Part shown: positions 1 through 62,346 of the stretch, in pieces
Layout: every line of letters starts with the position of its first letter
How positions within the stretch are numbered: position 1 is the first letter of the stretch
From: an uncultured Eubacteriales bacterium
Lineage (GTDB): Bacteria; Bacillota; Thermincolia; Thermincolales; CAZWUW01
Direction: 5' to 3'
DNA length: 63,933 nt
Assembly (NCBI GenBank): GCA_964636895.1
Contig: CAZWUW010000003.1
Coordinates: 1 to 63,933, forward strand
Translations under genes and position numbers: made by a program
Notes under the pieces: generated by a model
The model's database searches: none
Told to the model about the DNA's origin: nothing
The model's input: the letters and a program-made list of their open reading frames with translations, nothing else

Positions 1-519
1 GCCATGCCATGTTTGAACAAAAGCCTCACTTTCTTCCAGCGCTATTTGAGCGGTAGGGGCTACCCCGATCATGCCCCTGGACAGGCTGGCCCTGATACCG
101 CTTTGCCGGACGGCTTTGGCTGCTTCATCCATGAAAAAGTACATATCGGCGAAGGTGGTTGTCCCCGATTTAATCATTTCCAGCGTACACAGCATAGTTC
201 CCCAATATACGTCTTCCCCGGTTAAACGATCTTCCAGCGGCCAGATACGTTCAGAGAGCCACTGCATCAGCGGCAGGTCGTCGGCATAACTCCTGAGCAG
301 TGTCATCGCGGCATGGGTATGACAGTTGATCAGCCCCGGTAATGCCACCATACCTGTGGCGTCAATTGTTTTATCCGCTATCCAGCCTTTCTCTATCGTA
401 CCTGCCGGACCTACTGTCTTGATTTTGCCGGCATCAATAGTGATTTCGCCGTTTTGAATAATGTTTTCCTGGCCTGTCATAGGTATGACGGTGGCGCCTT
501 TAATTAATATTCTACTCAC
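1..519 (-). CDS. mtaD: 5'-methylthioadenosine/S-adenosylhomocysteine deaminase (amidohydrolase). N-terminal 173 codons only; the 3' end lies beyond the window edge.
   Basis: Reverse translation from GTG at 517-519 (GGAGG 7 nt upstream) reads MSRILIKGATVIPMTGQENIIQNGEITIDAGKIKTVGPAGTIEKGWIADKTIDATGMVALPGLINCHTHAAMT... The amidohydrolase metal-binding HxH (CHTH) and the following AAMTLLR..ADD.PLM.WL segment are typical of MtaD/DadD-type deaminases. Confidence 0.75.
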   Translation of the reverse strand, partial: MSRILIKGATVIPMTGQENIIQNGEITIDAGKIKTVGPAGTIEKGWIADKTIDATGMVALPGLINCHTHAAMTLLRSYADDLPLMQWLSERIWPLEDRLTGEDVYWGTMLCTLEMIKSGTTTFADMYFFMDEAAKAVRQSGIRASLSRGMIGVAPTAQIALEESEAFVQTWHG

Positions 520-530
520 GCTAATGCCTC

Positions 531-1121
531 CTACCACTGATTGTATTTAATGTTTTTCTTATCCCTCACTTCACCCTGCAAAGTTCGGGTCAGATAAATG
601 ATTTTACAGATATTCTCCAGGCTGGACGTCCATTGGTAAGCTTCTTCCAGTAACTGGCCGACAGCAAAACTGCCATGGCCGCGCACCATGACAATCTTAT
701 ATTCCTTTAGTAATTCAGGCAGTTTTGCCGCCACTTCCTGTGAACCCACAGTATGTTCCACTCCCAGCACAGGGATTTTGTGCAGCAAGTATTGCCCTTC
801 CGAATCAATCGGGATAATTTCATTATCAATAAGTGATAAAGCAGTGGCATATACCGGGTGAGCATGTACTATAGCAAGGGCGGCAGTCCCTTTAAATATG
901 GCCCGGTGAACTCCAATCTCTGTTGAGGCCAGAGTAATGTGAGCATCGTTTTTGTGCAAACCGGTTTCAATCAAATCCTGCTCTTCCAAATGACCCAGCA
1001 TTGAACCCCGCCTGGTAATTACCACCCGGTCACCCAGACGGACACTGAGATTACCACTATGGGAACTGTTCAGACCGGCTAGGAAAAGGTCCCGGCCAAT
1101 GCGTTGAAAATCCCTGATCAT
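531..1121 (-). CDS. Class II aldolase/adducin-fold protein (FucA/MtnB/Ald2 family). Candidate 5-(methylthio)ribulose-1-phosphate / 5-deoxyribulose-1-phosphate aldolase.
   Basis: 196-aa ORF with N-terminal SHSGNLS, a catalytic-Glu context STEIGVHRAIF, an HxH zinc motif in VHAHPVYATALS and a third His in HGSFAVG. Its start overlaps the aor stop by 1 nt and it ends 11 nt before the mtaD start. Confidence 0.8.
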   Translation of the reverse strand: MIRDFQRIGRDLFLAGLNSSHSGNLSVRLGDRVVITRRGSMLGHLEEQDLIETGLHKNDAHITLASTEIGVHRAIFKGTAALAIVHAHPVYATALSLIDNEIIPIDSEGQYLLHKIPVLGVEHTVGSQEVAAKLPELLKEYKIVMVRGHGSFAVGQLLEEAYQWTSSLENICKIIYLTRTLQGEVRDKKNIKYNQW

Positions 1122-2905
1122 CAGTTTGCCTCCAATCCCAACTGCGCCAGTTTGGCCTCTGCAGGGATACCATTATTATTCCAGCCGCGGAAACGATAAT
1201 ATTCTTCAAGCATCGGCTGCAACTCAACTACCCGGCCGGCGGAAGGCCCGGCTGCAACCGGTTCTTGCAGCAGCCTTGACGGTAAAGTGTCGTTTTCCCT
1301 AGTAAAACCTTCTCTTATATTGAACAACCGCTCCAGATTCCATATGCGCTCACCAATAACATGCAGGTCCTGGGGTTGATATGTTTCCCCGGTAACGGCG
1401 CTCAATAGGCGGGCAAAATACTCTTCCGAAACAGCCAGACCTAAAAAACGGCATAAGATTAATGAATCGACTGCGGCATTGACATTCTGATAAAAAATGG
1501 TTAAGCCGGCTTTGCCTGAGGTGGCAAAACGATCTACCATTTTCGGGACGCCAAGGGCTTCCGGTCCAACCATATAGGCCCGCAAATGACAGCCGCCCCG
1601 GTTAGAGGTGGCAAAACCAAGTCCCATGCCCTGCAAACCCCGCGGGTCATAAGCCGGTAGCTCCAGACCTTTGACCTGCATGGCAAATTCCTGCCCGCCC
1701 AGATCAGCAGCCAGTAGTTGGGTACCTTCACCTAACAAGGCACCTAAACCTTTCCGCCCGGCAATTTCCCTTATCAGGTCTAACAGTTTGCCCGTATCAC
1801 CAAAATTAAGACCGGTGTTATAAATCCCCTTTTCCTGCAATTCCATAGCAAAACCAATGGTTACCCCGACAGATATGGTATCTAATCCCAAGCGGTTGCA
1901 TAGATAGTTAGCTTCTGTAATTAATTCCAGGTCGCTAATCCCGCACTGTGGACCTAAAGCCCAGATTGATTCGTATTCGGGACCTTCCCCGGTATTGTTT
2001 TTGGTACCGGTTACTCTGGTGCACTGAATTGGACAGGCGTAACAACCGGTTTTTTTGATCGTCAGGGTCTCAGCCAGAGTTTCGCCGGAAATCTGCCCTG
2101 CTTGCGGGAACTGGGAAGCCTGAAAATTCCTGGCCGGAAAAATACCCATCTCATTGAACAGGTTTACCAGTACCGGGGTGCCAAATTCGGGCAGGCCCTG
2201 AGAGGTGATAGGATTGGCTTTAATCCACTTATTAGTTTCATAAAGTATAAAATCAAGTTTATCGCTGTCAGCCACAGGTACTTTGCGGGTACCTTTAACC
2301 ATTATTGCTTTTAAATTTTTGGCGCCCATAACGGCTCCAACGCCACCGCGGCCCAAGGCCCGGCTGCGGTCATTCATTATTGCCGCCAGCTTAACCTTGT
2401 TTTCACCGGCCGGCCCGATACAGGCCACACTGAAACCATCATCACCAATATCCTGCAACAGCCTGTCGGTAGTCGCCGGCACGTCCAATCCCCAATACTT
2501 GCGGGCATCTTTGATTTCTGCACCAGCTTCTGTAATTATAATATAAACAGGCATTTCTGCTGCGCCCTGAATAATTATGCCATCGTAACCACATTTCTTT
2601 AATCTGGCACCCCAAATACCTCCGGAATTGGAGTCGAATATTGTACCGGTTAGCGGTGACTTGGTAGAAACGCTGAACCGCCCCGAGGTGGGTACACGGG
2701 TGCCTGTCAGGGGACCGACTGTAAACACCAACCGGTTGCCCGGGCTAAGCGCATCGGTAGCAGGAGTTACTTCTTTGTGAACTAAATATGTGCCAAGCCC
2801 CCGACCGCCCAAGAATTTTTCCCTGATGCCGGCGGGCCAGGTTTCTTCAGTTATTCTTTTTGTGGTTAAATCAATTCTCAGTAACCGGCCCATCCACCCG
2901 TACAT
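1121..2905 (-). CDS. aor: Tungsten-containing aldehyde:ferredoxin oxidoreductase (AOR family).
   Basis: The ORF track gives 1121..2995. I prefer the ATG at 2903-2905 (MYGWMGRLLRIDLTT...), which has GGGAGGA 6 nt upstream and avoids overlapping the upstream gene. AOR hallmarks seen: the N-terminal MYGW.G..L.IDL pattern, a CxxCxxxC cluster motif (GCYACPIQC) and GFATSNRGGCHLR. Confidence 0.9.
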   Translation of the reverse strand: MYGWMGRLLRIDLTTKRITEETWPAGIREKFLGGRGLGTYLVHKEVTPATDALSPGNRLVFTVGPLTGTRVPTSGRFSVSTKSPLTGTIFDSNSGGIWGARLKKCGYDGIIIQGAAEMPVYIIITEAGAEIKDARKYWGLDVPATTDRLLQDIGDDGFSVACIGPAGENKVKLAAIMNDRSRALGRGGVGAVMGAKNLKAIMVKGTRKVPVADSDKLDFILYETNKWIKANPITSQGLPEFGTPVLVNLFNEMGIFPARNFQASQFPQAGQISGETLAETLTIKKTGCYACPIQCTRVTGTKNNTGEGPEYESIWALGPQCGISDLELITEANYLCNRLGLDTISVGVTIGFAMELQEKGIYNTGLNFGDTGKLLDLIREIAGRKGLGALLGEGTQLLAADLGGQEFAMQVKGLELPAYDPRGLQGMGLGFATSNRGGCHLRAYMVGPEALGVPKMVDRFATSGKAGLTIFYQNVNAAVDSLILCRFLGLAVSEEYFARLLSAVTGETYQPQDLHVIGERIWNLERLFNIREGFTRENDTLPSRLLQEPVAAGPSAGRVVELQPMLEEYYRFRGWNNNGIPAEAKLAQLGLEAN

Positions 2906-2927
2906 TTTTAGTCCTCCCGACCCGTAT

Positions 2928-3164
2928 TTAACCTCCGCCCACTGGCGGAAAAACACTGACCGTATCGCCGTCAACCAGGTCTTTTTCCAACGCACAATGG
3001 ATGCCGTTAACCAGAATTATAGTCGCTTCAGCTTCCGGTATATCATAAGCCCGGATAAGCTCCCGGACACTAAGGGGCCCCTCATGGATATAGGTAGCTT
3101 CACCGGATTTAAGATAATTCCGCAGCGTGGCAAAAACTTTCAGCGTTATTTGCATATTCACCAC
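2928..3164 (-). CDS. MoaD/ThiS-family ubiquitin-fold (sulfur-carrier-like) small protein.
   Basis: 78 aa ending ...DGDTVSVFPPVGGG-stop (C-terminal Gly-Gly). Size and pattern fit MoaD/ThiS. It lies 3 nt after the ahcY stop and 22 nt before the aor start. Confidence 0.7.
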   Translation of the reverse strand: MVNMQITLKVFATLRNYLKSGEATYIHEGPLSVRELIRAYDIPEAEATIILVNGIHCALEKDLVDGDTVSVFPPVGGG

Positions 3165-3167
3165 CCT

Positions 3168-4421
3168 CTATGCACCGTGTTCCCAACCATATAAATATGT
3201 TTCCTGTTCCGACGTTAGTTTATCTATGGTAGCTCCCAATGAGCGTATTTTGATTTCGGCTACGCGGTTGTCTATTTCCTGAGCCACCGGGTAAACCCGG
3301 TTATCCAACTGTCCGGCCTGATCGTTGATATATTTGGCGGAAAGAGCCTGAATGGCAAAAGACATATCCATAATTTCCGCCGGGTGGCCGTCACCGGCCG
3401 CCAGGTTAACCAACCGGCCTTCTGCCAGCAAGTATATTTTGCGGCCGTCGGCAAGAATAAATTCCTCGATATTCTGGCGCACCACCCTTTTCGTTCCGGC
3501 AAGTGCAGCCAGTTCCGGTATATTGATTTCCACATCAAAATGCCCGGCGTTTGCCAGCAGCACCCCGTTTTTCATTTTTTCAAAATGTTTGCCGCGAATA
3601 ACGTCCTTGCAGCCGGTCACGGTAATGAACACATCACCTAATATTGCGGCGTCATCCATGGTCATTACCTGGAAGCCGTCCATATGAGCTTCGATGGCCT
3701 TAATGGGATCAATCTCAGTTATAATGACCCTGGCGCCCAGCCCTTTGGCCTTCATGGCAATGCCTTTGCCGCACCAACCATAGCCTGCAACAACAACATT
3801 TTTACCGGAGACAATAAGGTTGGTGGTCCGCATGATACCGGTCCATACCGACTCCCCGGTACCGTACCGGTTATCAAAAAGATGTTTGCAATAGGCATCA
3901 TTAACTGCCATCATGGGAAACTTTAATAAGCCTTCTTGTTCCATGGCCCTGAGCCGCAGGATGCCGGTGGTAGTCTCTTCAGCACCACCGATTACGCCAG
4001 GCAGCAGGTCCTGACGCTCATTGTGCAGTATATTTACCAAGTCACCACCATCATCAATAATAATCTGTGGTCTGGTTTCCAAAACCTTGACCAGGTGCTC
4101 TTCATATTCTGCCGGGGTAGCGTTATACCAGGCAAACACCTGGATACCGTCTGCCACCAGGGCAGCAGCAATGTCATCCTGGGTGGATAAGGGGTTGCTG
4201 CCGGTAACAATCACTTCCGCTCCTCCGGCTTTTAGTACTTGCGCCAAATAGGCTGTCTTTGCTTCCAGATGTACGCTTACCGCAACCCTTTTCCCCTTAA
4301 ATGGCTGGTTGGCCTCAAAATCCTTTTTTATTTCATTTAAGACAGGCATGTGTTCTTTAACCCAGTCAATCTTCAACTTGCCCCCGGGGGCCAGCTTAAT
4401 GTCACGAACTATGTAATCCAT
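3168..4421 (-). CDS. ahcY: Adenosylhomocysteinase (short, archaeal/Firmicute-type, 417 aa). Could equally be an S-inosylhomocysteine hydrolase.
   Basis: MDYIVRDIKLAPGGKLKIDWVKEHMPVL..., an NAD-binding GYGWCGKG motif and a C-terminal ...LTSEQETYL tail. Full-length SAH-hydrolase pattern. Confidence 0.9.
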   Translation of the reverse strand: MDYIVRDIKLAPGGKLKIDWVKEHMPVLNEIKKDFEANQPFKGKRVAVSVHLEAKTAYLAQVLKAGGAEVIVTGSNPLSTQDDIAAALVADGIQVFAWYNATPAEYEEHLVKVLETRPQIIIDDGGDLVNILHNERQDLLPGVIGGAEETTTGILRLRAMEQEGLLKFPMMAVNDAYCKHLFDNRYGTGESVWTGIMRTTNLIVSGKNVVVAGYGWCGKGIAMKAKGLGARVIITEIDPIKAIEAHMDGFQVMTMDDAAILGDVFITVTGCKDVIRGKHFEKMKNGVLLANAGHFDVEINIPELAALAGTKRVVRQNIEEFILADGRKIYLLAEGRLVNLAAGDGHPAEIMDMSFAIQALSAKYINDQAGQLDNRVYPVAQEIDNRVAEIKIRSLGATIDKLTSEQETYLYGWEHGA

Positions 4422-4461
4422 TTAATTACCTCCCTCAATGTTATCATATTTTATGTATATA

Positions 4462-5499
4462 TTAACCAAAGATTTTCTTTAGATTATCTTCATATGGTGG
4501 ATATATGACCCCCCGGTCGGTAATAATGCCTTTGATTAAATGATGCGGAGTAACATCAAAGGCGGGATTATAAATCCGCACACCTTTAGGTGCTAAACCG
4601 ACGCCAAAGACTTCCGCCACTTCCCGGTGGTCTCTTTCCTCAATCGGAATATCATCACCATTTGCCAGCGCCAAATCAATAGTTGAAGCAGGTGCCGCCA
4701 CATAAAAAGGCACATTGTTTTCCTTTGCCAGCACTGCTACTGTATATGTACCAATTTTATTGGCCACATCTCCATTAGCCGTAATCCGGTCGGCACCAAC
4801 AACAGCCAGGTGAATTTTGCCCTGCCGCATCAGGTAGCCGGCCATGTTATCTGTAATCAGGGTCACCGGGATATTGTCCTGCATCAATTCCCAGGCGGTA
4901 AGCCGGGCCCCCTGCAACAATGGCCTGGTTTCATCAGCATAAACATGAATTCTTTTTCCTGCTTCATGCGCTGCTCTGATTACCCCCAGCGCGGTGCCAT
5001 AACCGGCGGTAGCCAATGCACCGGCATTGCAGTGGGTAAGGATGCTCGCCTCCGGTGGCACCAATTCATTGCCAAACCGGCCAATACTTCTGTTCATTTC
5101 AATATCTTCGGCAAAAATTCGACCGGCTTCTACGGTCATTATCCGCAGGATGTCAACCACTGGTCGGTCTGAATTTGTTTCGGCTATTTTGCGCATGCGG
5201 TTGATGGCCCAAAAAAGGTTAACTGCGGTAGGTCTGGTGGCCGCAAGTGTATTGGCAATCTGTTCTATACTGCGAAAAAACTCTTCATGAGCGCAGGAAC
5301 TAAATGACCGGGCCCCCAGCACCATCCCGAAAGCTGCTGCTGCTCCAATAGCCGGCGCTCCCCGTACCTGCATGGTCTTGATGGCTTCGGCCACATCATT
5401 ATATGTTCGGCAAGAGACATATTCTACATTATGGGGAAGTTTCGTTTGATCCAGCAATTCCAGGGTGTTATCCACCCATCTCATGGTATGCAAACTCAT
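4462..5499 (-). CDS. mtnA: S-methyl-5-thioribose-1-phosphate isomerase.
   Basis: 345 aa. Contains LELLDQTKLP..., VRGAPAIGAAAAFG, TRPTAVNLFWA and GADRITANGDVANKIGTY. eIF-2B/MtnA family signature. Confidence 0.9.
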   Translation of the reverse strand: MSLHTMRWVDNTLELLDQTKLPHNVEYVSCRTYNDVAEAIKTMQVRGAPAIGAAAAFGMVLGARSFSSCAHEEFFRSIEQIANTLAATRPTAVNLFWAINRMRKIAETNSDRPVVDILRIMTVEAGRIFAEDIEMNRSIGRFGNELVPPEASILTHCNAGALATAGYGTALGVIRAAHEAGKRIHVYADETRPLLQGARLTAWELMQDNIPVTLITDNMAGYLMRQGKIHLAVVGADRITANGDVANKIGTYTVAVLAKENNVPFYVAAPASTIDLALANGDDIPIEERDHREVAEVFGVGLAPKGVRIYNPAFDVTPHHLIKGIITDRGVIYPPYEDNLKKIFG

Positions 5500-6302
5500 T
5501 CTCCTTTTCCTGACCCCAGACTGCCCAGTTCACCAAGGGCAGTTTTGCATGTGCAGCTACGTTCTGCCGGCATGATAGCAACGGCCTGCATGATCAGTTT
5601 TTTTAGATTGTCATTATTGTTATTCATGGCTTCCAGTACTTCAGCATGAGTTAATGGGGTGGGTGAAATTCCGGCAGCAAAATTTGTTACTGCTGCCACC
5701 GTGGCGTAACATATTTCGGCTTCTCTGGCCAGTACCGCCTCAGGCACGGTGGTCATTCCCACCAGGTCACCGCCCAGGTGACTGTACATTTTAATTTCCG
5801 CGGGTGTTTCAAAGCGTGGGCCTTCTGTACATACATATGTACCTTGGTCATATATTTTTATATCCAAGTTCGCACCGGCTTTGGCGAGCACGTCCCGTAC
5901 CACTTTGCAATACGGTTCGGTCATATCAATATGTACAACACCTTGTTCGCCGTCTTCATAAAAGGTCTGCGGCCTGTTCTTGGTAAAATCGATAAACTGA
6001 TTAACCAGCACGAAATCACCCGGTCTCATCTCCAGATTCAGTGACCCGGTTGCGGCCGTGGCAATGATCTTCTCAACGCCCAGTTCTTTAAGAGCCAGTA
6101 TATTAGCCCGGTAATTTACTTTGTGCGGTGGAACAGCATGGTTTTCGCCGTGCCGGGCCAGAAAAGCCACTTTCTTGTTGGCATAAGTACCGATTTTAAT
6201 TGTTACCTGACCATAAGCCGTTTTAATGGTCTCCACGGTAATCTCACTTAATATCTGGGGATCATAAACCCCGGTTCCCCCAATGATGGCAATCTTGGGC
6301 AT
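5496..6302 (-). CDS. mtnP: 5'-methylthioadenosine (or methylthioinosine) phosphorylase.
   Basis: 268 aa. Contains MPKIAIIGGTGVY, FLARHG..H..PPHKVNYRANI and VGMTTVPEAVLAREAE. PNP/MTAP family. 4-nt overlap with the mtnA start. Confidence 0.85.
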   Translation of the reverse strand: MPKIAIIGGTGVYDPQILSEITVETIKTAYGQVTIKIGTYANKKVAFLARHGENHAVPPHKVNYRANILALKELGVEKIIATAATGSLNLEMRPGDFVLVNQFIDFTKNRPQTFYEDGEQGVVHIDMTEPYCKVVRDVLAKAGANLDIKIYDQGTYVCTEGPRFETPAEIKMYSHLGGDLVGMTTVPEAVLAREAEICYATVAAVTNFAAGISPTPLTHAEVLEAMNNNNDNLKKLIMQAVAIMPAERSCTCKTALGELGSLGSGKGE

Positions 6303-6350
6303 CTATTGTACCTCCTGTATGCTTCTGTACCTGCTTCTGTATTTGCTGCA

Positions 6351-7265
6351 TTACTTCTCAAATAATGCAGCGGCAAAGTCTCCGGCCTGAAAATCCCTGA
6401 GGTCATCTGTTTTTTCACCAATCCCGATTAGTTTTACAGGAATATCCAGTTCCGCCTTAATTCCAATAATTACACCGCCCTTAGCGGTTCCGTCCAACTT
6501 GGTCAGCACAATACCGGTTACACCAACGGCAGCATCAAATGTTTTGGCTTGATTAATGGCATTCTGCCCGGTGGTGGCATCTAAGACAAGTAACACTTCA
6601 TGAGGCGCGGTGGGAATTTCCCGGGAAACAACCCGAAAAACCTTCTTAAGTTCCTCCATTAAATTTGATTTGGTATGTAACCGACCAGCTGTATCAACAA
6701 TCAGAATATCCAAATTTCTGGCCCGGGATGCCTGAATAGCATCATAAACCACGGCAGCCGGGTCAGCCCCTTCGCGATGTTTGATGACGTCAACACCTGT
6801 TCTGTTGCCCCAAATTTCAAGTTGATCAATGGCAGCCGCCCGAAAGGTATCACCGGCGGCAATCAAAACTTTTTTGCCCTCATCCTTAAAACGGTTAGCC
6901 AATTTACCTATAGTAGTGGTCTTACCGACACCGTTCACCCCCACTACCATGATAATAACCGGTGCTGTCCCATTTATATTTAACGGTACATCTGCGCCAG
7001 TGAGAATCTCGGTAATCTGTTCCTGTAAAATCGGTTTCAGTTCCACAGCATCTTCAATCTTGCGTTCTTTTGCCCGCCGCCGTAGCTCTTCCACCAATGC
7101 TACTGCGGTATTTACACCTACATCTGCCTGAATAAGGATTTCTTCCAATTCCTCAAAAAGCTCATCATCAATTTTTTTTCGTCCGGTAACCAGGGTTTCT
7201 ATTTTTTCCACAAAGCCTTGACGTGTTTTAGTCAGACCAGCTTTTAACTTATCAAAAAAGCCCAC
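6351..7265 (-). CDS. ftsY: Signal recognition particle receptor FtsY.
   Basis: 304 aa. SRP GTPase motifs GVNGVGKTTTIGKLA, DTAGR and TKLDGTAKGG. Confidence 0.95.
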   Translation of the reverse strand: MGFFDKLKAGLTKTRQGFVEKIETLVTGRKKIDDELFEELEEILIQADVGVNTAVALVEELRRRAKERKIEDAVELKPILQEQITEILTGADVPLNINGTAPVIIMVVGVNGVGKTTTIGKLANRFKDEGKKVLIAAGDTFRAAAIDQLEIWGNRTGVDVIKHREGADPAAVVYDAIQASRARNLDILIVDTAGRLHTKSNLMEELKKVFRVVSREIPTAPHEVLLVLDATTGQNAINQAKTFDAAVGVTGIVLTKLDGTAKGGVIIGIKAELDIPVKLIGIGEKTDDLRDFQAGDFAAALFEK

Positions 7266-7324: not shown

Positions 7325-8476
7325 TTACCATATATATTGTTTTATCTCAATTGGTTTGCATAAATTCGTGTACTCCTGGGCTACGCCAAATTTTCGGTTC
7401 CTAATTTCGCTTTCCTCTGCCGGAGTTTTGGCTTCAAAAAACTTTTGCCCGAGCCGCTCATCTTCTTCGGCCAGGCTAAAGATCTGTTCCACCGTTGCTA
7501 TGACGGTGGCACCTCGCACTTTGCCGGAACTATCATGTCCGATGGCAATAATTGGCCGCCCCCATGTTCCCGGTCCGGCATTGGCATCCCCTATATGCAT
7601 AACCCCGGTACCACCGGGATGGGTGTGCACAATAACTGCATTTTCCGGGATTTCCCTGGCATATATCTGACGCAAAGACTTGCCTTTAATATCCACACAA
7701 CTTGCCGCTAATAACCTGGATGGCACATAGCCAATACCACCTACTACCATATTACCTTCTGCCACCACATGGCCATTATTGTCAATTTTTGCCATCATGG
7801 CAACTTCCCTGCCCTGGCCGACTTCCATGGATTTATCAACTAGTTGTCTGGCCAGTTCCTCCGAAATAGAATTAACACCAAGCCTGGGCAACTTCCAGTC
7901 CGGTTTTGTAAAATCCTCCTTTGTAAGACGGGGTTGTTCAGGTATGTCTGCTAACGGAATAACCGTGGAGAGCTCCAGGAATTTAAGGCTCATCTCCGTC
8001 GAACGGCGCATGATTTCTTTTTCTTCCTCCATGGTTTTGGCGGCCAGAATACGCAGATCAATTTGTTCAGTCTCTGTTGCCAGGTCAAAAAACTCCGGTC
8101 GGGGATAAATTAATCCTACACCGGCCAAATTTTCTTGTTTGATGCCGATAGCAACTAACGGAAGATTAAAAAAATCCACCCCGTTAACATCCGTTATCAA
8201 ACCAGTATGTCCGGGTCTGGTGGTTATCAGCACGGCATTATCCGGCAAATGCTCCAGTCCTTCAAGTAAACATTTGTTAGTCATGGATATAATATTGTTT
8301 AATTGTTGTCGCAATGGCATACCGGACAAACCGCCATCGCTAATTTCGGTGGTCCGGTCTATTATTCCATCCCGATTAACCAGGCCGAAACAACCGGCGT
8401 TTCGACCCTGACTAAGCTCATTGGTACGCTTAATCATATCATTGACAATGTATTTCGCTATTCCCCTTATTTCCAC
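7325..8476 (-). CDS. Uncharacterised protein with an internal tandem duplication. The C-terminal repeat carries a JAB/MPN-like HxH-x7-H-x2-D motif.
   Basis: 383-aa ORF with a GTG start at 8474-8476 and GGAGG 5 nt upstream. Repeat 1 is LPDNAVLITTRPGHTGLITDVNGVD...LVAIG. Repeat 2 is IPENAVIVHTHPGGTGVMHIGDANAG...IIAIG. I did not recognise a named family. Confidence 0.7.
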   Translation of the reverse strand: MEIRGIAKYIVNDMIKRTNELSQGRNAGCFGLVNRDGIIDRTTEISDGGLSGMPLRQQLNNIISMTNKCLLEGLEHLPDNAVLITTRPGHTGLITDVNGVDFFNLPLVAIGIKQENLAGVGLIYPRPEFFDLATETEQIDLRILAAKTMEEEKEIMRRSTEMSLKFLELSTVIPLADIPEQPRLTKEDFTKPDWKLPRLGVNSISEELARQLVDKSMEVGQGREVAMMAKIDNNGHVVAEGNMVVGGIGYVPSRLLAASCVDIKGKSLRQIYAREIPENAVIVHTHPGGTGVMHIGDANAGPGTWGRPIIAIGHDSSGKVRGATVIATVEQIFSLAEEDERLGQKFFEAKTPAEESEIRNRKFGVAQEYTNLCKPIEIKQYIW

Positions 8477-15966: not shown

Positions 15967-16947
15967 TCACACCTCGTTTCCGGCCAATTCCACTTCTTGT
16001 AAAAGTCTTTTGATGATTTCTTTTACCGGCAGTATTTCTTTAATTTCAAAAACCCGCTGGCCCGAGAAAACAAGGCCGTTGTCCATATCTCCCTGTTGAG
16101 CCGCCACTAAAGCTTTACTGATACAAAAACTACGGGAACATTTTTTTAAACATCCGTTACATTCATCAGGAGTCAGGTCTTCACCAGCAAAAAATCTTCT
16201 TGCAAAGTTGTTAATCAAACCTTGACCGGGCAATCCTACCGGGCTATCTACCAGCACAACGTCTTCCGGTTTAGCGTCAATATAAAGCTGCTTAAAAGCA
16301 TCCGCAGCATTAGATTCAACACTGGCAGCAAACCTGGTACCCATCTGCACACCGTCAGCCCCCAGCCTAAAAGCATCCACTATATCACCGCCATTAATAA
16401 TGCCACCGGCTGCAATAACTGGAATGTCAACGGCTCCTTTGACCTGGGGCACGAGTTCTTTCATCGATTTGCATTTTTCAGTACCAAGGTGACCACCGGC
16501 TTCTTTTCCTTCCACAACAATCGCTGCAGCTCCAAGTTTTTCAGCTATCTGAGCCAGCTTGGGGTTAGAAATAATCGGAACTATAGGCACATCCGCAGAT
16601 TTTCCCCAGCTATACATATCCCTGGAAAATCCGGCTCCCGATACAATTAAGTCAATACCTTCTTCAATTGCTGTTTTAATGGCATTGGCAAACTCATAAG
16701 CGGCAAACATAATGTTAATACCAATGATTCCTTTGGTCAACTCTCTTGCTTTGCGGATTTCCTGTTTCAGTTCGTCCATAGTCATAGCAGTTGCCGCAAT
16801 TAGTCCGATACCACCCTCTTCAGCCACTGCTGCCGCCAGCGGCGCAGTCGAAACCCGAACGGCCATGCCACCCTGGATAATAGGCAGTTTTGCAACCAGG
16901 TCGCCAATTTTTAATTCAGGTAGTTTCATCTTCTTCCTCCAATCCAA
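15967..16947 (-). CDS. FMN-dependent NPD/FabK-family oxidoreductase (second enoyl-ACP-reductase-II-like paralog) with a Cys-rich insert.
   Basis: 326 aa. Contains [14 protein letters not shown] and VQMGTRF, as in FabK/nitronate monooxygenase TIM barrels. Carries an extra [13 protein letters not shown] (Cx2Cx3Cx4C) motif that is absent from the other paralog. Confidence 0.75.
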
Positions 16948-18036: not shown

Positions 18037-18975
18037 CTATATAACCTCCCTTAAATTTTCAAGCGTCATTTCCAATGATTTAATATCTTCAACATTATAT
18101 AATTGACTATCGGGCACAATTTTCTTAATCAAACCCAACAGTACCCGGCCCGGCCCTAATTCCACATAATATTGCACCCTATTTGCCGACATGTTGCGGA
18201 TACAGTCTTCCCATCGCACCGAACCACTTACCTGTTTGATGAGAGATTCTCTGATTTCCGCCGCTGTGCGCACAAAATCACCGCTAACATTAGCAATAAC
18301 AGGAACTTGCGGATTGGTAATGACAACCTCCGCCAAAACACCGGTCAGCCTATCCCCCGCCGGCGTCATCAGGCTGGAATGAAATGGTCCGCTCACCGGC
18401 AGGGCGAGTACCCTTTTGGCACCCTTTTCCTTGGCCTTGGCCACTGCTTGTTCAAGTGCGGCAGTTTCACCGGCAATAATTATTTGTCCGGGGCAGTTAT
18501 AATTAGCTACTTCCACCACGCCACCGGAAACTTCCCGGCATAGGGCATCAACTTTTTCCCGCTCCAGCCCCAGCACTGCAGCCATTCCTCCGGTGCCGGG
18601 CGGGGACGCCTGCTGCATAAATTCGCCCCGGCTGCGGACAACTTTGACCGCATCAGCAAAAGAAATTGCCCCAGCCGCAACCAGAGCGGCATACTCCCCC
18701 AGACTGTGACCGGCCAGCATATCCGGCCGAAATCCGCTACGGGCTTGAAAAACCCTTAAAATCGCAATGCTTGTAGTCAAAATTGCCGGCTGAGTAACGG
18801 CAGTCATTTTTAACTCATCTTCCGGACCGTTAAAACATAATGCAGTCAGGTCAAAACCCAACACGTCATTGGCCTCCTGGTAAATATCCCGGGCTTCCGG
18901 GAAGGCATTTGATAACTCTCTGCCCATGCCTACATACTGCGATCCCTGTCCCGGAAAAACGAAGCCTATCCGCAC
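18037..18975 (-). CDS. fabD: Malonyl-CoA:ACP transacylase.
   Basis: [11 protein letters not shown] and active-site GHSLGEY. Confidence 0.95.
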
Positions 18976-19910
18976 GACTCCACCTCCAGTTTGCGGAGAA
19001 CATTGCCGGCATTATTTATAATTTCATCAATAATTGCTTTGACCGGCATGATTTCATTCACCATACCCGCTATTTGGCCTGCCATAACAGTACCGTTTTC
19101 CACATCACCATCTATCATAGCAAGCTTCAAACTACCCACTCCAAGCTTTTCCAGTTCCATGGCCGGTACGCCCTGTTTTTCCATCTCTTCATAGAGTTTG
19201 GTTAGCTTGTTTTTTATTGACCTGACAGGATGACCCGTAGACCTGCCGGAGGCTATCGTATCCCGGTCTTTAGCTTTAATAATAGCTTTCTTTACGTTAT
19301 CATGAATAGTGCACTCAGCAGCACACATAAAACGGGTACCGATTTGCACGCCAACAGCGCCTAATGCCAGGGCAGCCACTAATCCGCGACCGTCGGCAAT
19401 ACCACCGGCGGCAATAACCGGAATTCTAACGGCATCTACAACCTGAGGCACCAGTGCCATGGTAGTCAACTCGCCAATATGTCCGCCCGACTCCGTACCT
19501 TCCGCTATAACAGCATCCACGCCCTGCTTTTCAAGCCGTTGGGCCAGAGCCACAGAAGGAATAACGGGAATCACTTTTGTCCCGATTTCTTTCAAAATGG
19601 GTATGTACTTGGCCGGATTACCCGCACCGGTAGTAATAACTGGCACCCGCTCAGCCTTTATCACTTCCATCACTTCTTCTACAAAAGGCGACATCATCAT
19701 AACATTAACACCAAAAGGCTTATTCGTGAGGGTTTTTAATTTTTTAATCTCTGTTCTAACCCAATCCGCAGGATTATGTCCGGCCCCGATAATTCCCAAA
19801 CCGCCGGCTTCCGAAACTGCTGCCGCTAACTCCGCCGTTGAAACCCAAGCCATACCACCCTGCAAAACAGGGTATTCAATACCTAACAAATCACATAAAA
19901 CTGTTTTCAT
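18966..19910 (-). CDS. fabK: Enoyl-ACP reductase II (FMN-dependent).
   Basis: 314 aa. Contains YPVLQGGMAWVS, VIAEGTESGGH, IAAGGIADGRG and VQIGTRF. Sits in the position between fabH and fabD. Confidence 0.8.
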   Translation of the reverse strand: MKTVLCDLLGIEYPVLQGGMAWVSTAELAAAVSEAGGLGIIGAGHNPADWVRTEIKKLKTLTNKPFGVNVMMMSPFVEEVMEVIKAERVPVITTGAGNPAKYIPILKEIGTKVIPVIPSVALAQRLEKQGVDAVIAEGTESGGHIGELTTMALVPQVVDAVRIPVIAAGGIADGRGLVAALALGAVGVQIGTRFMCAAECTIHDNVKKAIIKAKDRDTIASGRSTGHPVRSIKNKLTKLYEEMEKQGVPAMELEKLGVGSLKLAMIDGDVENGTVMAGQIAGMVNEIMPVKAIIDEIINNAGNVLRKLEVESCG

Positions 19911-29197: not shown

Positions 29198-30040
29198 CTA
29201 TGACGTCTTTGAAATAAATCTTTTCATCAGCCAATTTGCTGACAAGTTTATTATCAGGATAGTAATAATCAATACTGTAGCCGTAGCAAAGGCTTTATCC
29301 ATAGCGCCCACTTCCATGGCCACAAGGTATAAATGCATCGACATGGTTCTAGCCTGGTCAAAAACACCGGTAGGTATACGCAGACTACCTCCAAGTGTCA
29401 GCATTAAGGCTGCCGTTTCGCCAACTACCCGGCCAATTGACAGAATAATCCCGGTGATAATCCCCGGTATGGCGCTAGGTAAAACGACCTTGGCAATAGT
29501 CTGCCACTTCGTAGCACCCAAAGCCTGACTACCTTCACGATAAGACATAGGTACTGTTTTCAATGCTTCTTCCGCTGTTCTAATTATTGTAGGCAAAATC
29601 ATGGTAGCGGCAGTAAGTGAACCGGAGATCAGGGACCAACCTTTAGTTATAGGTTCCAACAGGATAACAAAAAAAGTAAAACCAAAAAGTCCAAAAACTA
29701 TAGAAGGGATACCTGCCAGGGCATCAGTCCCAAACCTGATAAACCTGGTCAGCATTCCGTCCCTGGTGTATTCGTTCAGATAAATAGCTGCGCCTACACC
29801 AATAGGGGTGGCAATTACCAAAGATAATAAGGTGAAATATACCGTTCCCAGAATAACCGGAAAAATACCGCCTTTAGCCCCCATTTTGCGCGGCTTATCC
29901 AGAAGAAAATTAAGATTTACGTGACCTAATCCTTCAAATAAAATATAACCCAATATCACAGTCAAAATAATTACCGTGGATATTGCGGCCGAAAGAAGCA
30001 CTGCTTTGGCTATTTTTTGATTTGTTTTGACGCTGGCCAT
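29198..30040 (-). CDS. pstA: Phosphate ABC transporter permease PstA.
   Basis: 280 aa, 6 TM. EAA-loop region ...REGSQALGATKWQTIAKVVLP. Overlaps the pstC stop. Confidence 0.9.
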   Translation of the reverse strand: MASVKTNQKIAKAVLLSAAISTVIILTVILGYILFEGLGHVNLNFLLDKPRKMGAKGGIFPVILGTVYFTLLSLVIATPIGVGAAIYLNEYTRDGMLTRFIRFGTDALAGIPSIVFGLFGFTFFVILLEPITKGWSLISGSLTAATMILPTIIRTAEEALKTVPMSYREGSQALGATKWQTIAKVVLPSAIPGIITGIILSIGRVVGETAALMLTLGGSLRIPTGVFDQARTMSMHLYLVAMEVGAMDKAFATATVLIITILIINLSANWLMKRFISKTS

Positions 30041-30948
30041 TATGCTCTGCTCACCCCTTTTTTCGCCACATAAGCAGCGATTGTATTCAGCAGCATAATT
30101 ACAATAAAGAGAACAATCCCGGTGGCAAAAAGTGCGTTCATATGATAGCCGGACGCGTAATTCATTTCAATAGCAATGTTTCCGGTAAGGGTTCGAACCG
30201 GAGCAAAAATTGATTGGGGTATTAACGGTGTATTCCCGGCAACCATTATCACCGCCATCGTTTCACCAAGAGCCCGGCCCATGCCCAACACAACCGCGGC
30301 GATAATCCCGGAAACTGCCGCCGGCACTATTACTTTATAAACCGTCTGCCAGTGCGAAGCTCCCAGCGCCAGAGATGCCTCTTTATACTCACGAGGTACG
30401 GACCTGATAGCGTCCTCGGAAATATTAATAACTGTAGGTAGAATCATAATAGCTAAAATAATTGCCGCCGACAACACACTAAAACCTTTTTGATACTGGG
30501 GGTCCAGAATACCGGATAAGTATGAACGCTGGAGATGCATAATCGTACTATTAATAATTACCATGCCAAATAATCCGTATACTACTGAGGGAATCCCAGC
30601 CAGGAGTTCAATAGCCGGTCTGACCAAGCGGCTGATTTTGGGATTAGAGAATTCCGCCAGATAAATGGCAGTGGCAACTCCAAGGGGAACGCCCAAGATT
30701 AGGGCACAGAAAGTAACCACAAAAGTACCGATAATCATCGGCAGGATGCCAAAAAACCCAGCGGTGGGACGCCATTCAGTACCCAGCAGAAATTTGGTCA
30801 GGCCTACTTTTTCAAAAATCGGCAGACCTTCTTTGATGACAAAACCACCTATAAAAATAATCACCACAACCGAGACAAAAGCACATGCTAGGAGCATTTT
30901 TTCGTAAAAAATTTCTCTTGTTTTATAATACAAAAACATCACTCCCAA
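30040..30948 (-). CDS. pstC: Phosphate ABC transporter permease PstC.
   Basis: 302 aa. Contains REYKEASLALGASHWQTVYKVIVP. The start is ambiguous (TTG at 30948 or ATG at 30939). Confidence 0.9.
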   Translation of the reverse strand: MGVMFLYYKTREIFYEKMLLACAFVSVVVIIFIGGFVIKEGLPIFEKVGLTKFLLGTEWRPTAGFFGILPMIIGTFVVTFCALILGVPLGVATAIYLAEFSNPKISRLVRPAIELLAGIPSVVYGLFGMVIINSTIMHLQRSYLSGILDPQYQKGFSVLSAAIILAIMILPTVINISEDAIRSVPREYKEASLALGASHWQTVYKVIVPAAVSGIIAAVVLGMGRALGETMAVIMVAGNTPLIPQSIFAPVRTLTGNIAIEMNYASGYHMNALFATGIVLFIVIMLLNTIAAYVAKKGVSRA

Positions 30949-30952
30949 AGGA

Positions 30953-30980
30953 ATATAGGGTGGATTAATCCACCCTATAT
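30953..30980 (-). other. Perfect palindrome/hairpin between pstS and pstC.
   Basis: ATATAGGGTGGAT-TA-ATCCACCCTATAT. Probably an intra-operon attenuator or mRNA-stabilising hairpin. Confidence 0.5.
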
Positions 30981-31015
30981 ATTATAACTTATTTTCGCTG
31001 CCTTGAAAGACTTTT

Positions 31016-31882
31016 TTATTTTGCTATCGAAATAAATTCTTCGGCAACAATTTTTTGTCCGTCCGGACCCAGTACATAGTCAATAAAGGTCTGAGTTGCC
31101 GCGTCCGGCGTACCGCTTGTGAGGAAAAGGAACGGGCGGGCTATTTTGTAAGAATCGTTTAACACATTCTCATCAGTTGCGTCTATGCCCTCAACTTTTA
31201 TTGCTTTTACAGAGGTATCCAGTGAACCCAGGGAGATGTAACCAATGGCATTTTCATCCTGAGATACGGCAGTTCTGACGGCCCCGGTAGAACTCTGTAC
31301 CACAGCACTGTCAATAAATTTGCCATCCTTACCCAGCACGATTTCCTGAAAAGCGCCCCGTGTGCCGGAAGCCTCGTCACGGTTAACCACAGTTATGGGA
31401 GCATCTTTGCCGCCAACTTCTTTCCAGTTTTTAATTTCGCCGTTATAGATTTTCTTGATTTGTTCCAGTTTCAGGTCGGTCACTTTACTTTGGGGATTAA
31501 CAACTACGGCAATACCATCTTTGGCAATTATGGTTTCCTTAAGACCAGCGGCCTTTTCTTCGGACTTCAGTGCACGGGATGATGTTCCAATGTTGGCAGT
31601 TTTATCCTGAGCAGCTTTCACACCTGCGCTGGAACCACCGCCGGCCACATCAACCTTAATGTCTTTATTGACTTCCTCAAAAGCCTGGGCCAGTTCTTCA
31701 GCCAACGGTTGTACGGATGTGGATCCGGCAATATTTACTTTGCCGCTTGCTTTTTCGGTGCTTTCAGTATTCTGACCTTCAGTTTTGGGCTCCTCTTGCT
31801 TGCCGCAACCTACCACGGCTACCATTGCAGACAAAACTATGACCATTAAAACTACTAACTTTGCTTTTTTCCAGGTCATCAT
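31016..31882 (-). CDS. pstS: Phosphate-binding lipoprotein PstS.
   Basis: 288 aa. Lipobox VVGCG, then GSTSVQPL, GGGSSAG and RDEASGTRGAF. PBP-like-2 phosphate-binding pattern. Confidence 0.9.
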   Translation of the reverse strand: MMTWKKAKLVVLMVIVLSAMVAVVGCGKQEEPKTEGQNTESTEKASGKVNIAGSTSVQPLAEELAQAFEEVNKDIKVDVAGGGSSAGVKAAQDKTANIGTSSRALKSEEKAAGLKETIIAKDGIAVVVNPQSKVTDLKLEQIKKIYNGEIKNWKEVGGKDAPITVVNRDEASGTRGAFQEIVLGKDGKFIDSAVVQSSTGAVRTAVSQDENAIGYISLGSLDTSVKAIKVEGIDATDENVLNDSYKIARPFLFLTSGTPDAATQTFIDYVLGPDGQKIVAEEFISIAK

Positions 31883-36875: not shown

Positions 36876-37772
36876 CTATTTTATTGGAATGAAGCCTTGC
36901 TCTTCTACAATTTGCTGTCCTTCCCGGCTCAAAGTAAAGTCTACAAATGATTTTATGTGCCCCAGAGGTTCACCGGCGGTATATAAATATAAAGAACGGG
37001 AAATGGGATAATCTCCCGATTTTACATTTTCATTACTGGGGTCTAACGCCTCTGCACCTGGTTTCAAGGCGATTTTTAGGATTTTTACATCTTTATTGGC
37101 TTTTGCATCACCAATGCCCACATAGCCGATAGCAGTTTTTTGTTTTGCTGTTTCTTCTGTTTCAGCCCGGGAAGTTTGAACAAATAATGTATTGGCACTA
37201 AATGGTGCGTCCTTCAGTACATGTTCCTTAAAATAGTCATGTGTACCTGAATTGGCTTCACGGGAAATGATTTTGATAGCTTCGTTTTTACCACCAACCT
37301 CTTGCCAGTTGATTATCTTGCCGGTAAAAATATCTCTTAATTGCTCTATACTTAATTGTGTTACCGGATTATCCTTATTTACTACAATAGCCAGACCATC
37401 CAGGGCTATAATAAATTCCTTCGGTTCAATACCTTTACTTATCGCTTCTTCAATTTCTGCGGGCTTCATTTTCCTGGAAGCATTGGCAATATCGGTGGTA
37501 CCCACGGTTAAAGCCTTGATACCGGTTCCCGAACCTCCGCCCACGACTGCCAATTGCGTATCCCGATTTTTCTCCATAAAAGCTTCCGCCATGGCTTTAC
37601 TTAGATAAACCATGGTATCGGAGCCTTTGATATTAATTACTTTATTATCAACCGTAATTTCGTTATTTTCTGCAACAGGTTTTTCCCCTGTTTTTTTTGT
37701 GCCAGTACAGCCTGTTAATAAGCCGGAAATTAACAAAACCATAATTCCTATGACAATCCTTTTTTTCATCAT
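36876..37772 (-). CDS. PstS-family phosphate-binding lipoprotein (third paralog), coupled to the chemoreceptor gene.
   Basis: 298 aa. Lipobox LLTGCTG, then GSDTM, GGGSGTG and SREANSGTHDYF. Its RBS (GGAGG) lies inside the last codons of the upstream mcp. Confidence 0.85.
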   Translation of the reverse strand: MMKKRIVIGIMVLLISGLLTGCTGTKKTGEKPVAENNEITVDNKVINIKGSDTMVYLSKAMAEAFMEKNRDTQLAVVGGGSGTGIKALTVGTTDIANASRKMKPAEIEEAISKGIEPKEFIIALDGLAIVVNKDNPVTQLSIEQLRDIFTGKIINWQEVGGKNEAIKIISREANSGTHDYFKEHVLKDAPFSANTLFVQTSRAETEETAKQKTAIGYVGIGDAKANKDVKILKIALKPGAEALDPSNENVKSGDYPISRSLYLYTAGEPLGHIKSFVDFTLSREGQQIVEEQGFIPIK

Positions 37773-37774
37773 TC

Positions 37775-39856: not shown

Positions 39857-39905
39857 TAGCTTCTCCCTCATTAAATCATTTTATGATGTGCTTTTCTACG
39901 CATTC

Positions 39906-39933
39906 TTTAAAGAGGTTGTTAACCGGGTGTTAA
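39906..39933 (-). promoter_or_regulatory. Pho-box-like phased hexamers upstream of mcp.
   Basis: Minus strand: TTAACA(39933-39928)-n5-TTAACA(39922-39917)-n5-TTTAAA(39911-39906). About 50 nt upstream of the mcp ATG. Confidence 0.5.
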
Positions 39934-40028
39934 TATTTGCTTAAAATTTATGGCGTTAAAAAGTCTATGAAAAAAGGTCATCACTTGAAATAATCCACTA
40001 AGACTAATTTCAAGTTTTGACCTTTGTA

Positions 40029-40742: not shown

Positions 40743-40764
40743 CTCATTTTTAGCCTTTATTTAC

Positions 40765-40818
40765 AATTTACATTACCAATGTAAAAGCTGCGTTGGCGAC
40801 TGGTTAATTCTATGTTAA
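40765..40818 (-). promoter_or_regulatory. Pho-box-like hexamers plus -10 upstream of the response regulator.
   Basis: Minus strand: TTAACA(40818-40813)-n5-TTAACC(40807-40802)-n16-TTTACA(40785-40780)-n9-TAAATT(40770-40765). The hexamers are in an 11-bp register. Confidence 0.5.
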
Positions 40819-40851
40819 TTTATGGTTATAATTTCGTTTTTCTAATTCTAA

Positions 40852-43587: not shown

Positions 43588-43609
43588 TAAACCACCCCTC
43601 ACAAATATT

Positions 43610-43663
43610 AAAAAAAGGAATGCCGCCGCCAGTGTAACTGCTGACTGGCGGCAATTGCATTCC
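43610..43663 (-). terminator. Strong intra-operon terminator/attenuator between pstS and pstC.
   Basis: Minus strand: GGAATGC-aatt-GCCGCCAGT-(loop)-ACTGGCGGC-GGCATTCC followed by TTTTTTT. Confidence 0.7.
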
Positions 43664-43683
43664 AGTCACTGGATTAATTATAA

Positions 43684-62196: not shown

Positions 62197-62346
62197 ATCG
62201 AACTCCTTTATACTTGCCATATTTTATTATATACTCTTTACCATAGTGTCGTCCAATATATCAGGCAATAGTTTAAGCAAAAGGCAGGAAACTCCAACAT
62301 AGGTGGCGAAGAAAAATAATACCGTCTATCAAAGGAGTAAGAATAA

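Follow-up and report, generated by a model that had tools for sequence, protein, structure and literature searches.

A conserved aldehyde:ferredoxin oxidoreductase-aldolase gene pair in a candidate S-adenosylmethionine by-product disposal operon of an uncultured Eubacteriales bacterium

The first 6,302 nucleotides (nt) of contig CAZWUW010000003.1 (assembly GCA_964636895.1), from an uncultured Eubacteriales bacterium, hold seven head-to-tail, minus-strand open reading frames (ORFs) in which genes for the salvage of S-adenosylmethionine (SAM) by-products stand together with genes for an aldehyde:ferredoxin oxidoreductase (AOR) and a class II aldolase. Throughout, the window denotes the whole 63,933-nt stretch of DNA that was analysed. 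The gene order mtnP, mtnA, ahcY, MoaD/ThiS-like gene, aor, aldolase gene (ald) and mtaD, the identities of the genes and the lengths of their junctions, all of which had been read from the DNA in an earlier examination (the original prediction), were confirmed by ORF calls, Pfam and NCBIfam. The features of the operon are as follows.

5496-6302, minus strand: mtnP, 5'-methylthio-/5'-deoxy-nucleoside phosphorylase (PNP_UDP_1; TIGR01694, NF006599)
4462-5499, minus strand: mtnA, 5-methylthioribose-1-phosphate/5-deoxyribose-1-phosphate isomerase (IF-2B; TIGR00512)
3168-4421, minus strand: ahcY homolog, predicted S-inosyl-L-homocysteine (SIH) hydrolase (TIGR00936; HLEAK motif)
2928-3155 (ATG start) or 2928-3164 (GTG start), minus strand: MoaD/ThiS-like gene (PF02597)
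1121-2905, minus strand: aor, with an ATG start and a GGAGG ribosome-binding site (AFOR_N and AFOR_C)
531-1121, minus strand: ald, class II metal-dependent aldolase (PF00596, PRK08660)
534-575, minus strand: aldolase residues 183-196 (…KYNQW), the C-terminal tail with the terminal Trp of aor-linked aldolases
1-519, minus strand: mtaD, N-terminal 173 residues, the gene being cut by the window edge (Amidohydro_1)

The genes mtnP and mtnA overlap by 4 nt and are followed by a 40-nt gap to ahcY, a 3-nt gap to the MoaD-like gene (12 nt with its ATG start) and a 22-nt gap to aor. The aor stop and the aldolase start share one nucleotide (TGATG), and 11 nt separate the aldolase gene from mtaD. No intrinsic-terminator-like site was found in any minus-strand intergenic gap of the operon. 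Promoter and terminator counts in the window were no higher than in shuffled sequence, and an Rfam scan of the whole window returned a single tRNA only, with no molybdenum cofactor, SAM or other riboswitch near the operon.

The window AOR matches both domains of its family (AFOR_N, 271 bits; AFOR_C, 487 bits) and is 48.6% identical to the Pyrococcus furiosus enzyme (1aor). When the two are aligned, CYACPIQC, EGPEYES, GGCHLR, LGLDTIS and DSLILC are conserved, and the window protein keeps the Cys-x2-Cys-x3-Cys…Cys ligands of the [4Fe-4S] cluster, the Glu of EGPEYE, the His of GGCH and the pterin-binding Asp motifs. These features point to an aldehyde:ferredoxin oxidoreductase of the tungsten type, with tungsten as its predicted metal and ferredoxin as its predicted partner. 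A tungstate transporter is absent from the window, where the PBP_like_2/ATP-binding cassette (ABC) sets are two Pst phosphate systems, and genes for AorA (polyferredoxin) and AorC (FAD subunit) do not lie beside aor, which is flanked by the MoaD-like gene and the aldolase gene only. The MoaD-like protein belongs to the ThiS family (PF02597, 43 bits) and terminates in …PPVGGG. Counting the window and 41 loci, 42 sources have a GG-terminated MoaD-like ORF no more than 2.5 kb from an AOR gene, and clades of AORs that lack the aldolase are among them. Because it accompanies AOR genes with or without an aldolase, a role in AOR maturation, not in the salvage chemistry, is indicated; the protein probably carries sulfur for the pterin cofactor of AOR or acts otherwise as a maturation factor for it. 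The assignment first suggested for this gene thus fits its family-wide distribution.

The aldolase meets what is expected of a class II, FucA-like enzyme in its fold family (PF00596, Aldolase_II, 117 bits), its three His ligands, its catalytic Glu and its phosphate-binding Asn. Residues N24, E68, H86, H88, Y111 and H149 are invariant in the homolog alignment A1; of these, the metal-ligand His residues (H86, H88, H149), E68 (equivalent to FucA Glu73) and the phosphate-binding N24 align with FucA residues. Identity with MtnB was ruled out, the scores against TIGR03328 (44 bits; cut-off 137) and NF006672 (47 bits; cut-off 226) being far too low. The protein passes NCBIfam PRK08660 instead (255 bits; cut-off 203). 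Ald2 from the mtnK-mtnA-ald2 cluster of Escherichia coli belongs to a different NCBIfam family, scoring 364 bits against PRK08087 and only 71 bits against PRK08660. The class II assignment of the original prediction stands, and the protein belongs to a third lineage, apart from both Ald2 and DrdA. No characterised member of PRK08660 was found, and NCBIfam names the family merely 'aldolase'. The closest solved structure, 2fk5, is an uncharacterised Thermus thermophilus protein carrying only its depositor's name, and a structure prediction for the aldolase, made from a shallow alignment, was unusable (predicted local distance difference test score 43). 'Fuculose-phosphate aldolase' as an annotation for the aldolase of these operons is probably a misnomer. 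We propose that the window aldolase cleaves 5-deoxy- or 5-methylthio-ribulose-1-phosphate to dihydroxyacetone phosphate (DHAP) and an aldehyde.

The distribution of the aldolase gene was followed in 80 genomic loci fetched around aldolase homologs (53-82% identity), onto which the seven window proteins were mapped. In 57 of the 80, aor lies directly upstream of ald on the same strand, with an overlap or a gap of at most 17 nt in 46 of the 57. By genome labels, the pair occurs in Bacillota, Actinomycetota, Chloroflexota, Planctomycetota, Bacteroidota, KSB1, Calditrichota, Aerophobetes and Deltaproteobacteria, and every non-Bacillota locus of the 80 retains it. The 23 loci without aor all come from the Pelotomaculum/Desulfotomaculaceae/Peptococcaceae group. 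Since many of these aor-less loci keep the flanking genes (murI, ald and a conserved gene for a 181-residue protein without a Pfam match), aor was probably lost there. In the Pelotomaculum-type loci (L013, L016-L018, L021-L023, L026, L028, L030, L031, L033, L035, L037-L039, L042, L043, L047 and L049), ald remains, often in an unchanged chromosomal position, and its product no longer has the tail that ends in Trp.

Seven Thermincola-like metagenome-assembled genomes (L001-L003, L005-L007 and L014) show the complete order mtnP-mtnA-ahcY-(moaD)-aor-ald-mtaD as well, and so does the cultured Carboxydocella sporoproducens DSM 16521 (L162), their aldolases being 73-82% identical to that of the window. 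None of the close relatives with the operon lacks the AOR gene, which bears out the co-occurrence expected of it. In a sister lineage (L020, L032, L045, L050 and L062) mtnP-mtnA-ahcY-mtaD run uninterrupted and the aldolase gene, with or without aor, lies a few kb away; in the lineage of the window, therefore, aor and ald were inserted as a unit between ahcY and mtaD. The original prediction pictured aor as embedded beside a resident shunt aldolase; instead, a pre-existing pair entered the mtnP-mtnA-ahcY-mtaD operon whole. What is conserved is the succession of aor and ald, not the operon as a whole, and we regard these two genes as a module that is old and mobile. No AOR-aldolase fusion was seen in the 150 best cluster representatives (50% identity), only tandem double aldolases; several representatives of about 390-440 residues in the wider family carry two tandem aldolase domains (P0153, P0156, P0162-P0164, P0166 and others).

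A reciprocal test began from the other partner: metagenome contigs were scanned with a consensus of the aldolase-linked AORs, giving 80 AOR loci (45-62% identity) picked regardless of their neighbours. In a neighbour-joining tree that includes five solved AOR-family structures, the aldolase-linked AORs form one clade with moderate bootstrap support (67 of 100). All four evaluable metagenomic members of this clade have ald downstream. Beyond the clade and two sister groups of mixed composition, ald follows none of the roughly 50 AORs. P. furiosus AOR, 9g7j, 9mqx and Aromatoleum AorB, which are the four characterised enzymes of the tree, all fall outside the clade.

The aldolase itself has a feature that varies with the presence of aor. 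A C-terminal Trp closes all 56 evaluable aor-linked aldolases of the genome loci and none of the 23 aor-less ones. The tail that it closes is charged and variable, some 14 residues long, and often finishes with [Y/F]-x-x-W (…KYNQW in the window). Trp is likewise the last residue of the Carboxydocella aldolase and of four among six metagenomic cases; one ends in Phe, and a distant homolog at 40% identity does not end in Trp. Tails of aor-less aldolases are truncated or replaced, L013 reading …KAWPN. The nominal probability of the association (p = 3.5e-19) overstates the independence of the observations, because the aor-less set is phylogenetically clustered. This is nevertheless the pattern expected if the tail were to matter only in partnership with AOR. 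Together with cross-phylum adjacency and the pairing-specific AOR clade, the Trp that tracks aor supports a functional coupling of the two proteins.

We surveyed the contexts of the pair by clustering neighbouring ORFs de novo and then scanning them for families. Many pairs stand alone among housekeeping genes and several lie in sugar clusters. In Anaerolineae (L077, L079 and L080), the genes directly upstream of aor-ald encode an ABC transporter for sugars, an FGGY kinase resembling rhamnulokinase and an L-rhamnose isomerase (RhaI; TIGR02635, 584 bits, above cut-off), and a Dehalococcoidia locus (L064) has the order aor-ald-rhamnulokinase. Metagenome locus L081 reads rhaB, rhaD-like, rhaA, moaD, aor, ald, and L082 reads rhaB, fucA-like, aor, ald. 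At L071 (4772-7464) and L078 (3710-7482), the latter with RhaI as well, a LarA-like homolog of the nickel-pincer 2-hydroxyacid racemases (410 bits, below the LarA cut-off) is encoded upstream of moaD-aor-ald. Both of these loci also have, just upstream of moaD-aor-ald, a gene for a conserved protein of about 420-460 residues without a family match. In a sister group of AORs, deoC (deoxyribose-phosphate aldolase, 285 bits) lies directly upstream of an aor that has no PRK08660 aldolase (L085, 6134-8758); L084 (1-2268) probably has the same deoC-aor arrangement, a second kind of aldolase/AOR pairing.

The sugar and deoC contexts each contain an aldolase step that would release a short aldehyde, lactaldehyde from rhamnulose-1-phosphate or acetaldehyde from deoxyribose-5-phosphate, and the recurrence of such steps in independent contexts is what a coupling of aldolase and AOR predicts. 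In other phyla the module appears to serve rhamnose catabolism, with AOR converting L-lactaldehyde to lactate, which would constitute an anaerobic variant of that pathway.

The remaining genes of the window operon determine what the pair would receive there. MtnP passes both the 5'-methylthioadenosine (MTA) phosphorylase (MTAP) model TIGR01694 (308 bits; cut-off 275) and, with 263 bits, the 5'-methylthioinosine (MTI) phosphorylase model NF006599. Four solved MTAPs have the Asp of TDYD where the window protein has Asn207 (codon 5682-5684, motif VTNFA), and the Asn is kept in all relatives that have the operon. The residue of trimeric purine nucleoside phosphorylases that contacts the purine 6-substituent and N7 is Asn in enzymes for 6-oxopurines and Asp in those for 6-aminopurines. 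Asn207 therefore suggests a preference of MtnP for hypoxanthine nucleosides, namely MTI and 5'-deoxyinosine. MtnA is a clear family member (TIGR00512, 467 bits; cut-off 279) and shares 45% identity with its counterpart in the DHAP-shunt cluster validated in E. coli.

The AhcY homolog passes TIGR00936 (619 bits; cut-off 498) and carries HLEAK at residues 51-55 (4257-4271), an HxExK motif in place of HxTxE/Q that is conserved in 11 relatives. This fingerprint separates hydrolases preferring SIH from S-adenosylhomocysteine (SAH) hydrolases (PMC10978960), and the window protein is probably an SIH hydrolase, not an SAH hydrolase. The MtaD fragment has its best NCBIfam matches in chlorohydrolase models and in models of the deaminases for MTA, SAH and 5'-deoxyadenosine, with scores below the full-length equivalog cut-offs, as is necessary for 173 residues; relatives have a full-length mtaD ortholog downstream of the aldolase gene. 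A deaminase-first, hypoxanthine route is thus indicated by HxExK in AhcY, Asn207 in MtnP and the co-encoded MtaD. The names ahcY and mtnP of the original prediction hold at the level of family, with both proteins bearing hypoxanthine-route signatures, so that the two genes would be better annotated as probable SIH hydrolase and MTI/5'-deoxyinosine phosphorylase. The larger ORFs in the 64-kb window yielded no classical methionine salvage gene (mtnB, mtnC or mtnW/X, mtnD, transaminase), in agreement with the absence noted earlier; this check was made by family scans, with the smc-rnc-fab-plsX region read by eye.

Taken together, the gene identities, their adjacency, the pairing-specific AOR clade, the link between tail and aor and the motifs are what we observe. 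From these we infer all substrates and products, the direction of the AOR reaction and its metal. The route so assembled would begin with the deamination of 5'-deoxyadenosine, MTA and SAH by MtaD to their inosine forms. The AhcY homolog, as an SIH-type hydrolase, would free homocysteine, while MtnP would phosphorolyse 5'-deoxyinosine or MTI to 5-deoxy- or 5-methylthio-ribose-1-phosphate and hypoxanthine. MtnA would isomerise these sugar phosphates to the ribulose-1-phosphates, which the PRK08660-type aldolase would cleave to DHAP and either acetaldehyde or 2-(methylthio)acetaldehyde. Finally, the translationally coupled AOR would irreversibly oxidise the aldehyde, yielding acetate or 2-(methylthio)acetate, and reduce ferredoxin. 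Starting from MTA, 2-(methylthio)acetate would be a product of disposal, not of sulfur salvage. On balance, we think it probable, and well supported by context, that the operon encodes such a complete disposal route for SAM by-products, with deamination as its first step and ferredoxin-linked aldehyde oxidation as its last.

The proposed ending has a plausible driving force. The equilibrium constant of aldol cleavage is ~1e-4 and favours condensation (PMC6079011), and an irreversible, high-affinity aldehyde sink is a sensible partner for an aldolase because the cleavage equilibrium is unfavourable; the AOR would pull cleavage forward against it. Pulling the aldol cleavage and removing a toxic aldehyde are likelier benefits than energy conservation. 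The ferredoxin-linked oxidative ending that was originally put forward has context support (adjacency, AOR clade, tail), and its description as an energy-conserving variant does not, since the flux through salvage is small and direct formation of the acid bypasses acetyl-CoA and forgoes the ATP of that route. The window also encodes an [FeFe]-hydrogenase of the monomeric type (46924-48720, plus strand; 2Fe-2S and 4Fe-4S domains at its N-terminus), a possible sink for reduced ferredoxin that nothing links to the operon.

A wider proposal can be built on the pair. The overlapping stop and start codons, and a Trp exclusive to aor-linked aldolases, hint at a partnership in which the tail could be a docking element. 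By analogy with FucA, which has a mobile C-terminal tail, it could alternatively be an active-site lid. It is conceivable, though we would sooner bet against it than for it, that aor-linked PRK08660 aldolases dock on AOR through this tail and form a tungsten-dependent bienzyme that passes acetaldehyde, 2-(methylthio)acetaldehyde or lactaldehyde directly to the tungstopterin site, as a portable module that anaerobes of many phyla plug in for SAM by-product salvage or deoxy-sugar catabolism. If true, a whole clade of bacterial AORs would have a defined physiological job, and the terminal-Trp signature offers a mutational handle on the partnership.

Several points weigh against the disposal route proposed for the operon. 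Orthology of the window aldolase to Ald2 is ruled out (28% identity to the E. coli protein), as is orthology to DrdA (19 bits for structure 6btd, E = 0.008), so that the shunt assignment of the aldolase draws on context, not homology. The drd clusters were themselves first predicted from the same kind of gene context (PMC6079011). Most aor-ald pairs are not near mtn genes, and because the linkage with mtn genes is confined to related Bacillota lineages, it represents few independent events. The AOR tree is a neighbour-joining tree only, with support that is moderate. AORs are reversible in principle. A second aldolase is encoded next to aor-ald in the rhamnose clusters of L081 and L082, and the PRK08660 protein is therefore not necessarily the sole or primary aldolase everywhere. 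Furthermore, the sequencing runs that contain this sequence are DNA metagenomes only (rock, sediment and bioreactor).

Some of these points would suit a different account, in which aor-ald is a general deoxy-sugar unit (for rhamnose, fucose or other ketose-1-phosphates) that came to lie between ahcY and mtaD in a single lineage of Bacillota and has no metabolic link to MtnA, whose products would be handled elsewhere or excreted. That account gains from the many pairs that stand alone or in sugar clusters and from the lack of an Ald2 or DrdA ortholog. It also gains from the Deltaproteobacteria locus L067, where the proximity of mtnA to aor-ald had to be rejected as evidence of linkage, as bamD, dapA, dapB, dapL and folK intervene in what is a housekeeping neighbourhood. 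We nevertheless judge it unlikely: the insertion lies within a tightly joined operon and has been retained across the Thermincola-like genomes and Carboxydocella, the operon encodes no other enzyme that could take the MtnA product, no mtnB-type gene was found in the larger ORFs of the window, and phosphorylase, MtnA and FucA-like aldolase genes together are the type of cluster shown to make up the DHAP shunt (PMC6079011). The second aldolases at L081 and L082, the missing characterised relatives and the perfect correlation of the terminal Trp with aor would also be compatible with a PRK08660 protein that releases no aldehyde, having a different activity of the class II fold (as a dehydratase, decarboxylase or epimerase) or serving as an obligatory AOR subunit docked through its Trp, with the aldehydes for AOR coming from elsewhere. 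The invariant metal ligands and the Glu equivalent to FucA Glu73 make this decidedly improbable, as does the pairing of the sister AOR group with DeoC, a bona fide aldolase; in Anaerolineae, in Dehalococcoidia and in the window operon, moreover, the PRK08660 protein is the sole aldolase candidate. Least credible, and in our view very improbable, is operation in the biosynthetic direction, with AOR reducing a carboxylic acid at the expense of reduced ferredoxin and the aldolase condensing the aldehyde with DHAP to a deoxy-ketose phosphate. Acetogen AORs do reduce acids (PMC11353040) and the aldol equilibrium favours condensation, but all informative neighbourhoods are catabolic or salvage-related (uptake transporters, isomerase, kinase, phosphorylase, deaminase), and no gene for a consumer of such a product lies nearby.

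The disposal route that we prefer combines systems already known separately, namely the DHAP shunt, the deaminase route and the AORs; what would be new is their combination with a dedicated AOR ending. The DHAP shunt occurs as MtnP or MtnN plus MtnK, with MtnA and Ald2, in Rhodospirillum rubrum and E. coli and as DrdK-DrdI-DrdA in Bacillus thuringiensis. The window shares its first enzymes and logic, with clustered genes for a phosphorylase, the MtnA isomerase and a class II aldolase, and differs from it in the lineage of the aldolase and in the co-operonic, translationally coupled AOR. Reduction to the alcohol had been taken as the described fate of the shunt aldehyde and is not the sole one, for in anaerobic E. 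coli acetaldehyde derived from 5-deoxyribose goes to ethanol or partly to acetate through AdhE and acetyl-CoA (PMC10986504). Aldehyde oxidation as such is consequently not new, since the AdhE route was known. If the proposal is true, a ferredoxin-linked route to the acid, independent of CoA and NAD, would be a third fate for the shunt aldehyde and one that matters to strict anaerobes, given their wealth of radical-SAM enzymes. Searches of open-access full texts turned up no description of a dedicated AOR of the ferredoxin type that is encoded in the same operon and ends the shunt, nor of a cross-phylum aor-ald module with its own AOR clade, nor of the terminal-Trp signature, nor of the module in rhamnose clusters.

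A deaminase-first route for SAM by-products is known in Methanocaldococcus jannaschii and Thermotoga maritima, where DadD/MtaD acts together with an SIH hydrolase. The window resembles it in the MtaD-type deaminase, the HxExK AhcY homolog and the Asn of the phosphorylase; here, in contrast, the steps lie in one operon with MtnA, aldolase and AOR, and the preferences of AhcY and MtnP are predicted from motifs only. With the characterised AORs (1aor, 9g7j, 9mqx and Aromatoleum AorB, 8c0z), the window enzyme shares 43-49% identity, the two domains, the Cys ligands of the [4Fe-4S] cluster and the Glu and His residues. It is set apart by its separate clade with a downstream PRK08660 aldolase, by the lack of AorA/AorC-type subunit genes beside it and by a pathway context, as opposed to generalist aldehyde scavenging. 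What bacterial tungsten AORs do physiologically is for the most part unclear, and one clade of them is here placed in a specific and testable pathway, for which Carboxydocella sporoproducens DSM 16521 is a cultured operon host.

Two further comparisons concern the pair itself. In the catabolism of L-rhamnose and L-fucose, E. coli AldA oxidises lactaldehyde, and Rodionova and colleagues reportedly described in 2013 an aldolase-dehydrogenase fusion, RhaEW, in Chloroflexi and Actinobacteria. These systems likewise join a deoxy-ketose-1-phosphate aldolase to an aldehyde oxidiser, and aor-ald lies in RhaI/rhamnulokinase clusters of Chloroflexota; the predicted oxidant of the module is, however, a ferredoxin-dependent tungstopterin enzyme instead of an NAD-dependent dehydrogenase, and its genes are separate. 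DmpFG and BphIJ are aldolase-dehydrogenase channelling complexes. Here too an aldolase is encoded beside the enzyme that removes its toxic aldehyde, and the invariant C-terminal Trp of the aor-linked aldolases hints at a comparable physical partnership, whereas folds and cofactors are unrelated and the AOR product would be a free acid and not an acyl-CoA.

Upstream of the operon lies ftsY (6351-7265, minus strand). Its spacing from mtnP is 48 nt in the window (6303-6350) and free of terminators, and 4 nt in Carboxydocella (L162, 2093-2098). Given so short and terminator-free a gap, the transcript may start further upstream, and the operon may be co-transcribed with the housekeeping operon containing ftsY. 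In relatives, the salvage operon is wedged into a conserved smc-ftsY … ffh region, where it abuts ftsY. Between smc and ftsY, a 383-residue ORF (7325-8476, minus strand) without a Pfam or NCBIfam match holds the same position in Thermincola-like relatives (ORF cluster c20).

Elsewhere in the window, two separate Pst-type phosphate ABC transporter sets (29198-31882 and 36876-44868) include three PstS-family binding proteins, one of which carries a copper-amine-oxidase-like domain at its N-terminus. Between the sets lie genes for a response regulator, a methyl-accepting chemotaxis protein and a protein with an HD domain. Two large minus-strand ORFs, of 741 residues (55979-58204) and 668 residues (60214-62220), lack a Pfam match, and the first adjoins a GT4 glycosyltransferase gene (58194-59363). 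Lastly, the fab cluster contains two genes, at 15967-16947 and 18966-19910 (minus strand), that by eye appear to encode FabK-like (nitronate-monooxygenase-type) enoyl-acyl carrier protein reductases.

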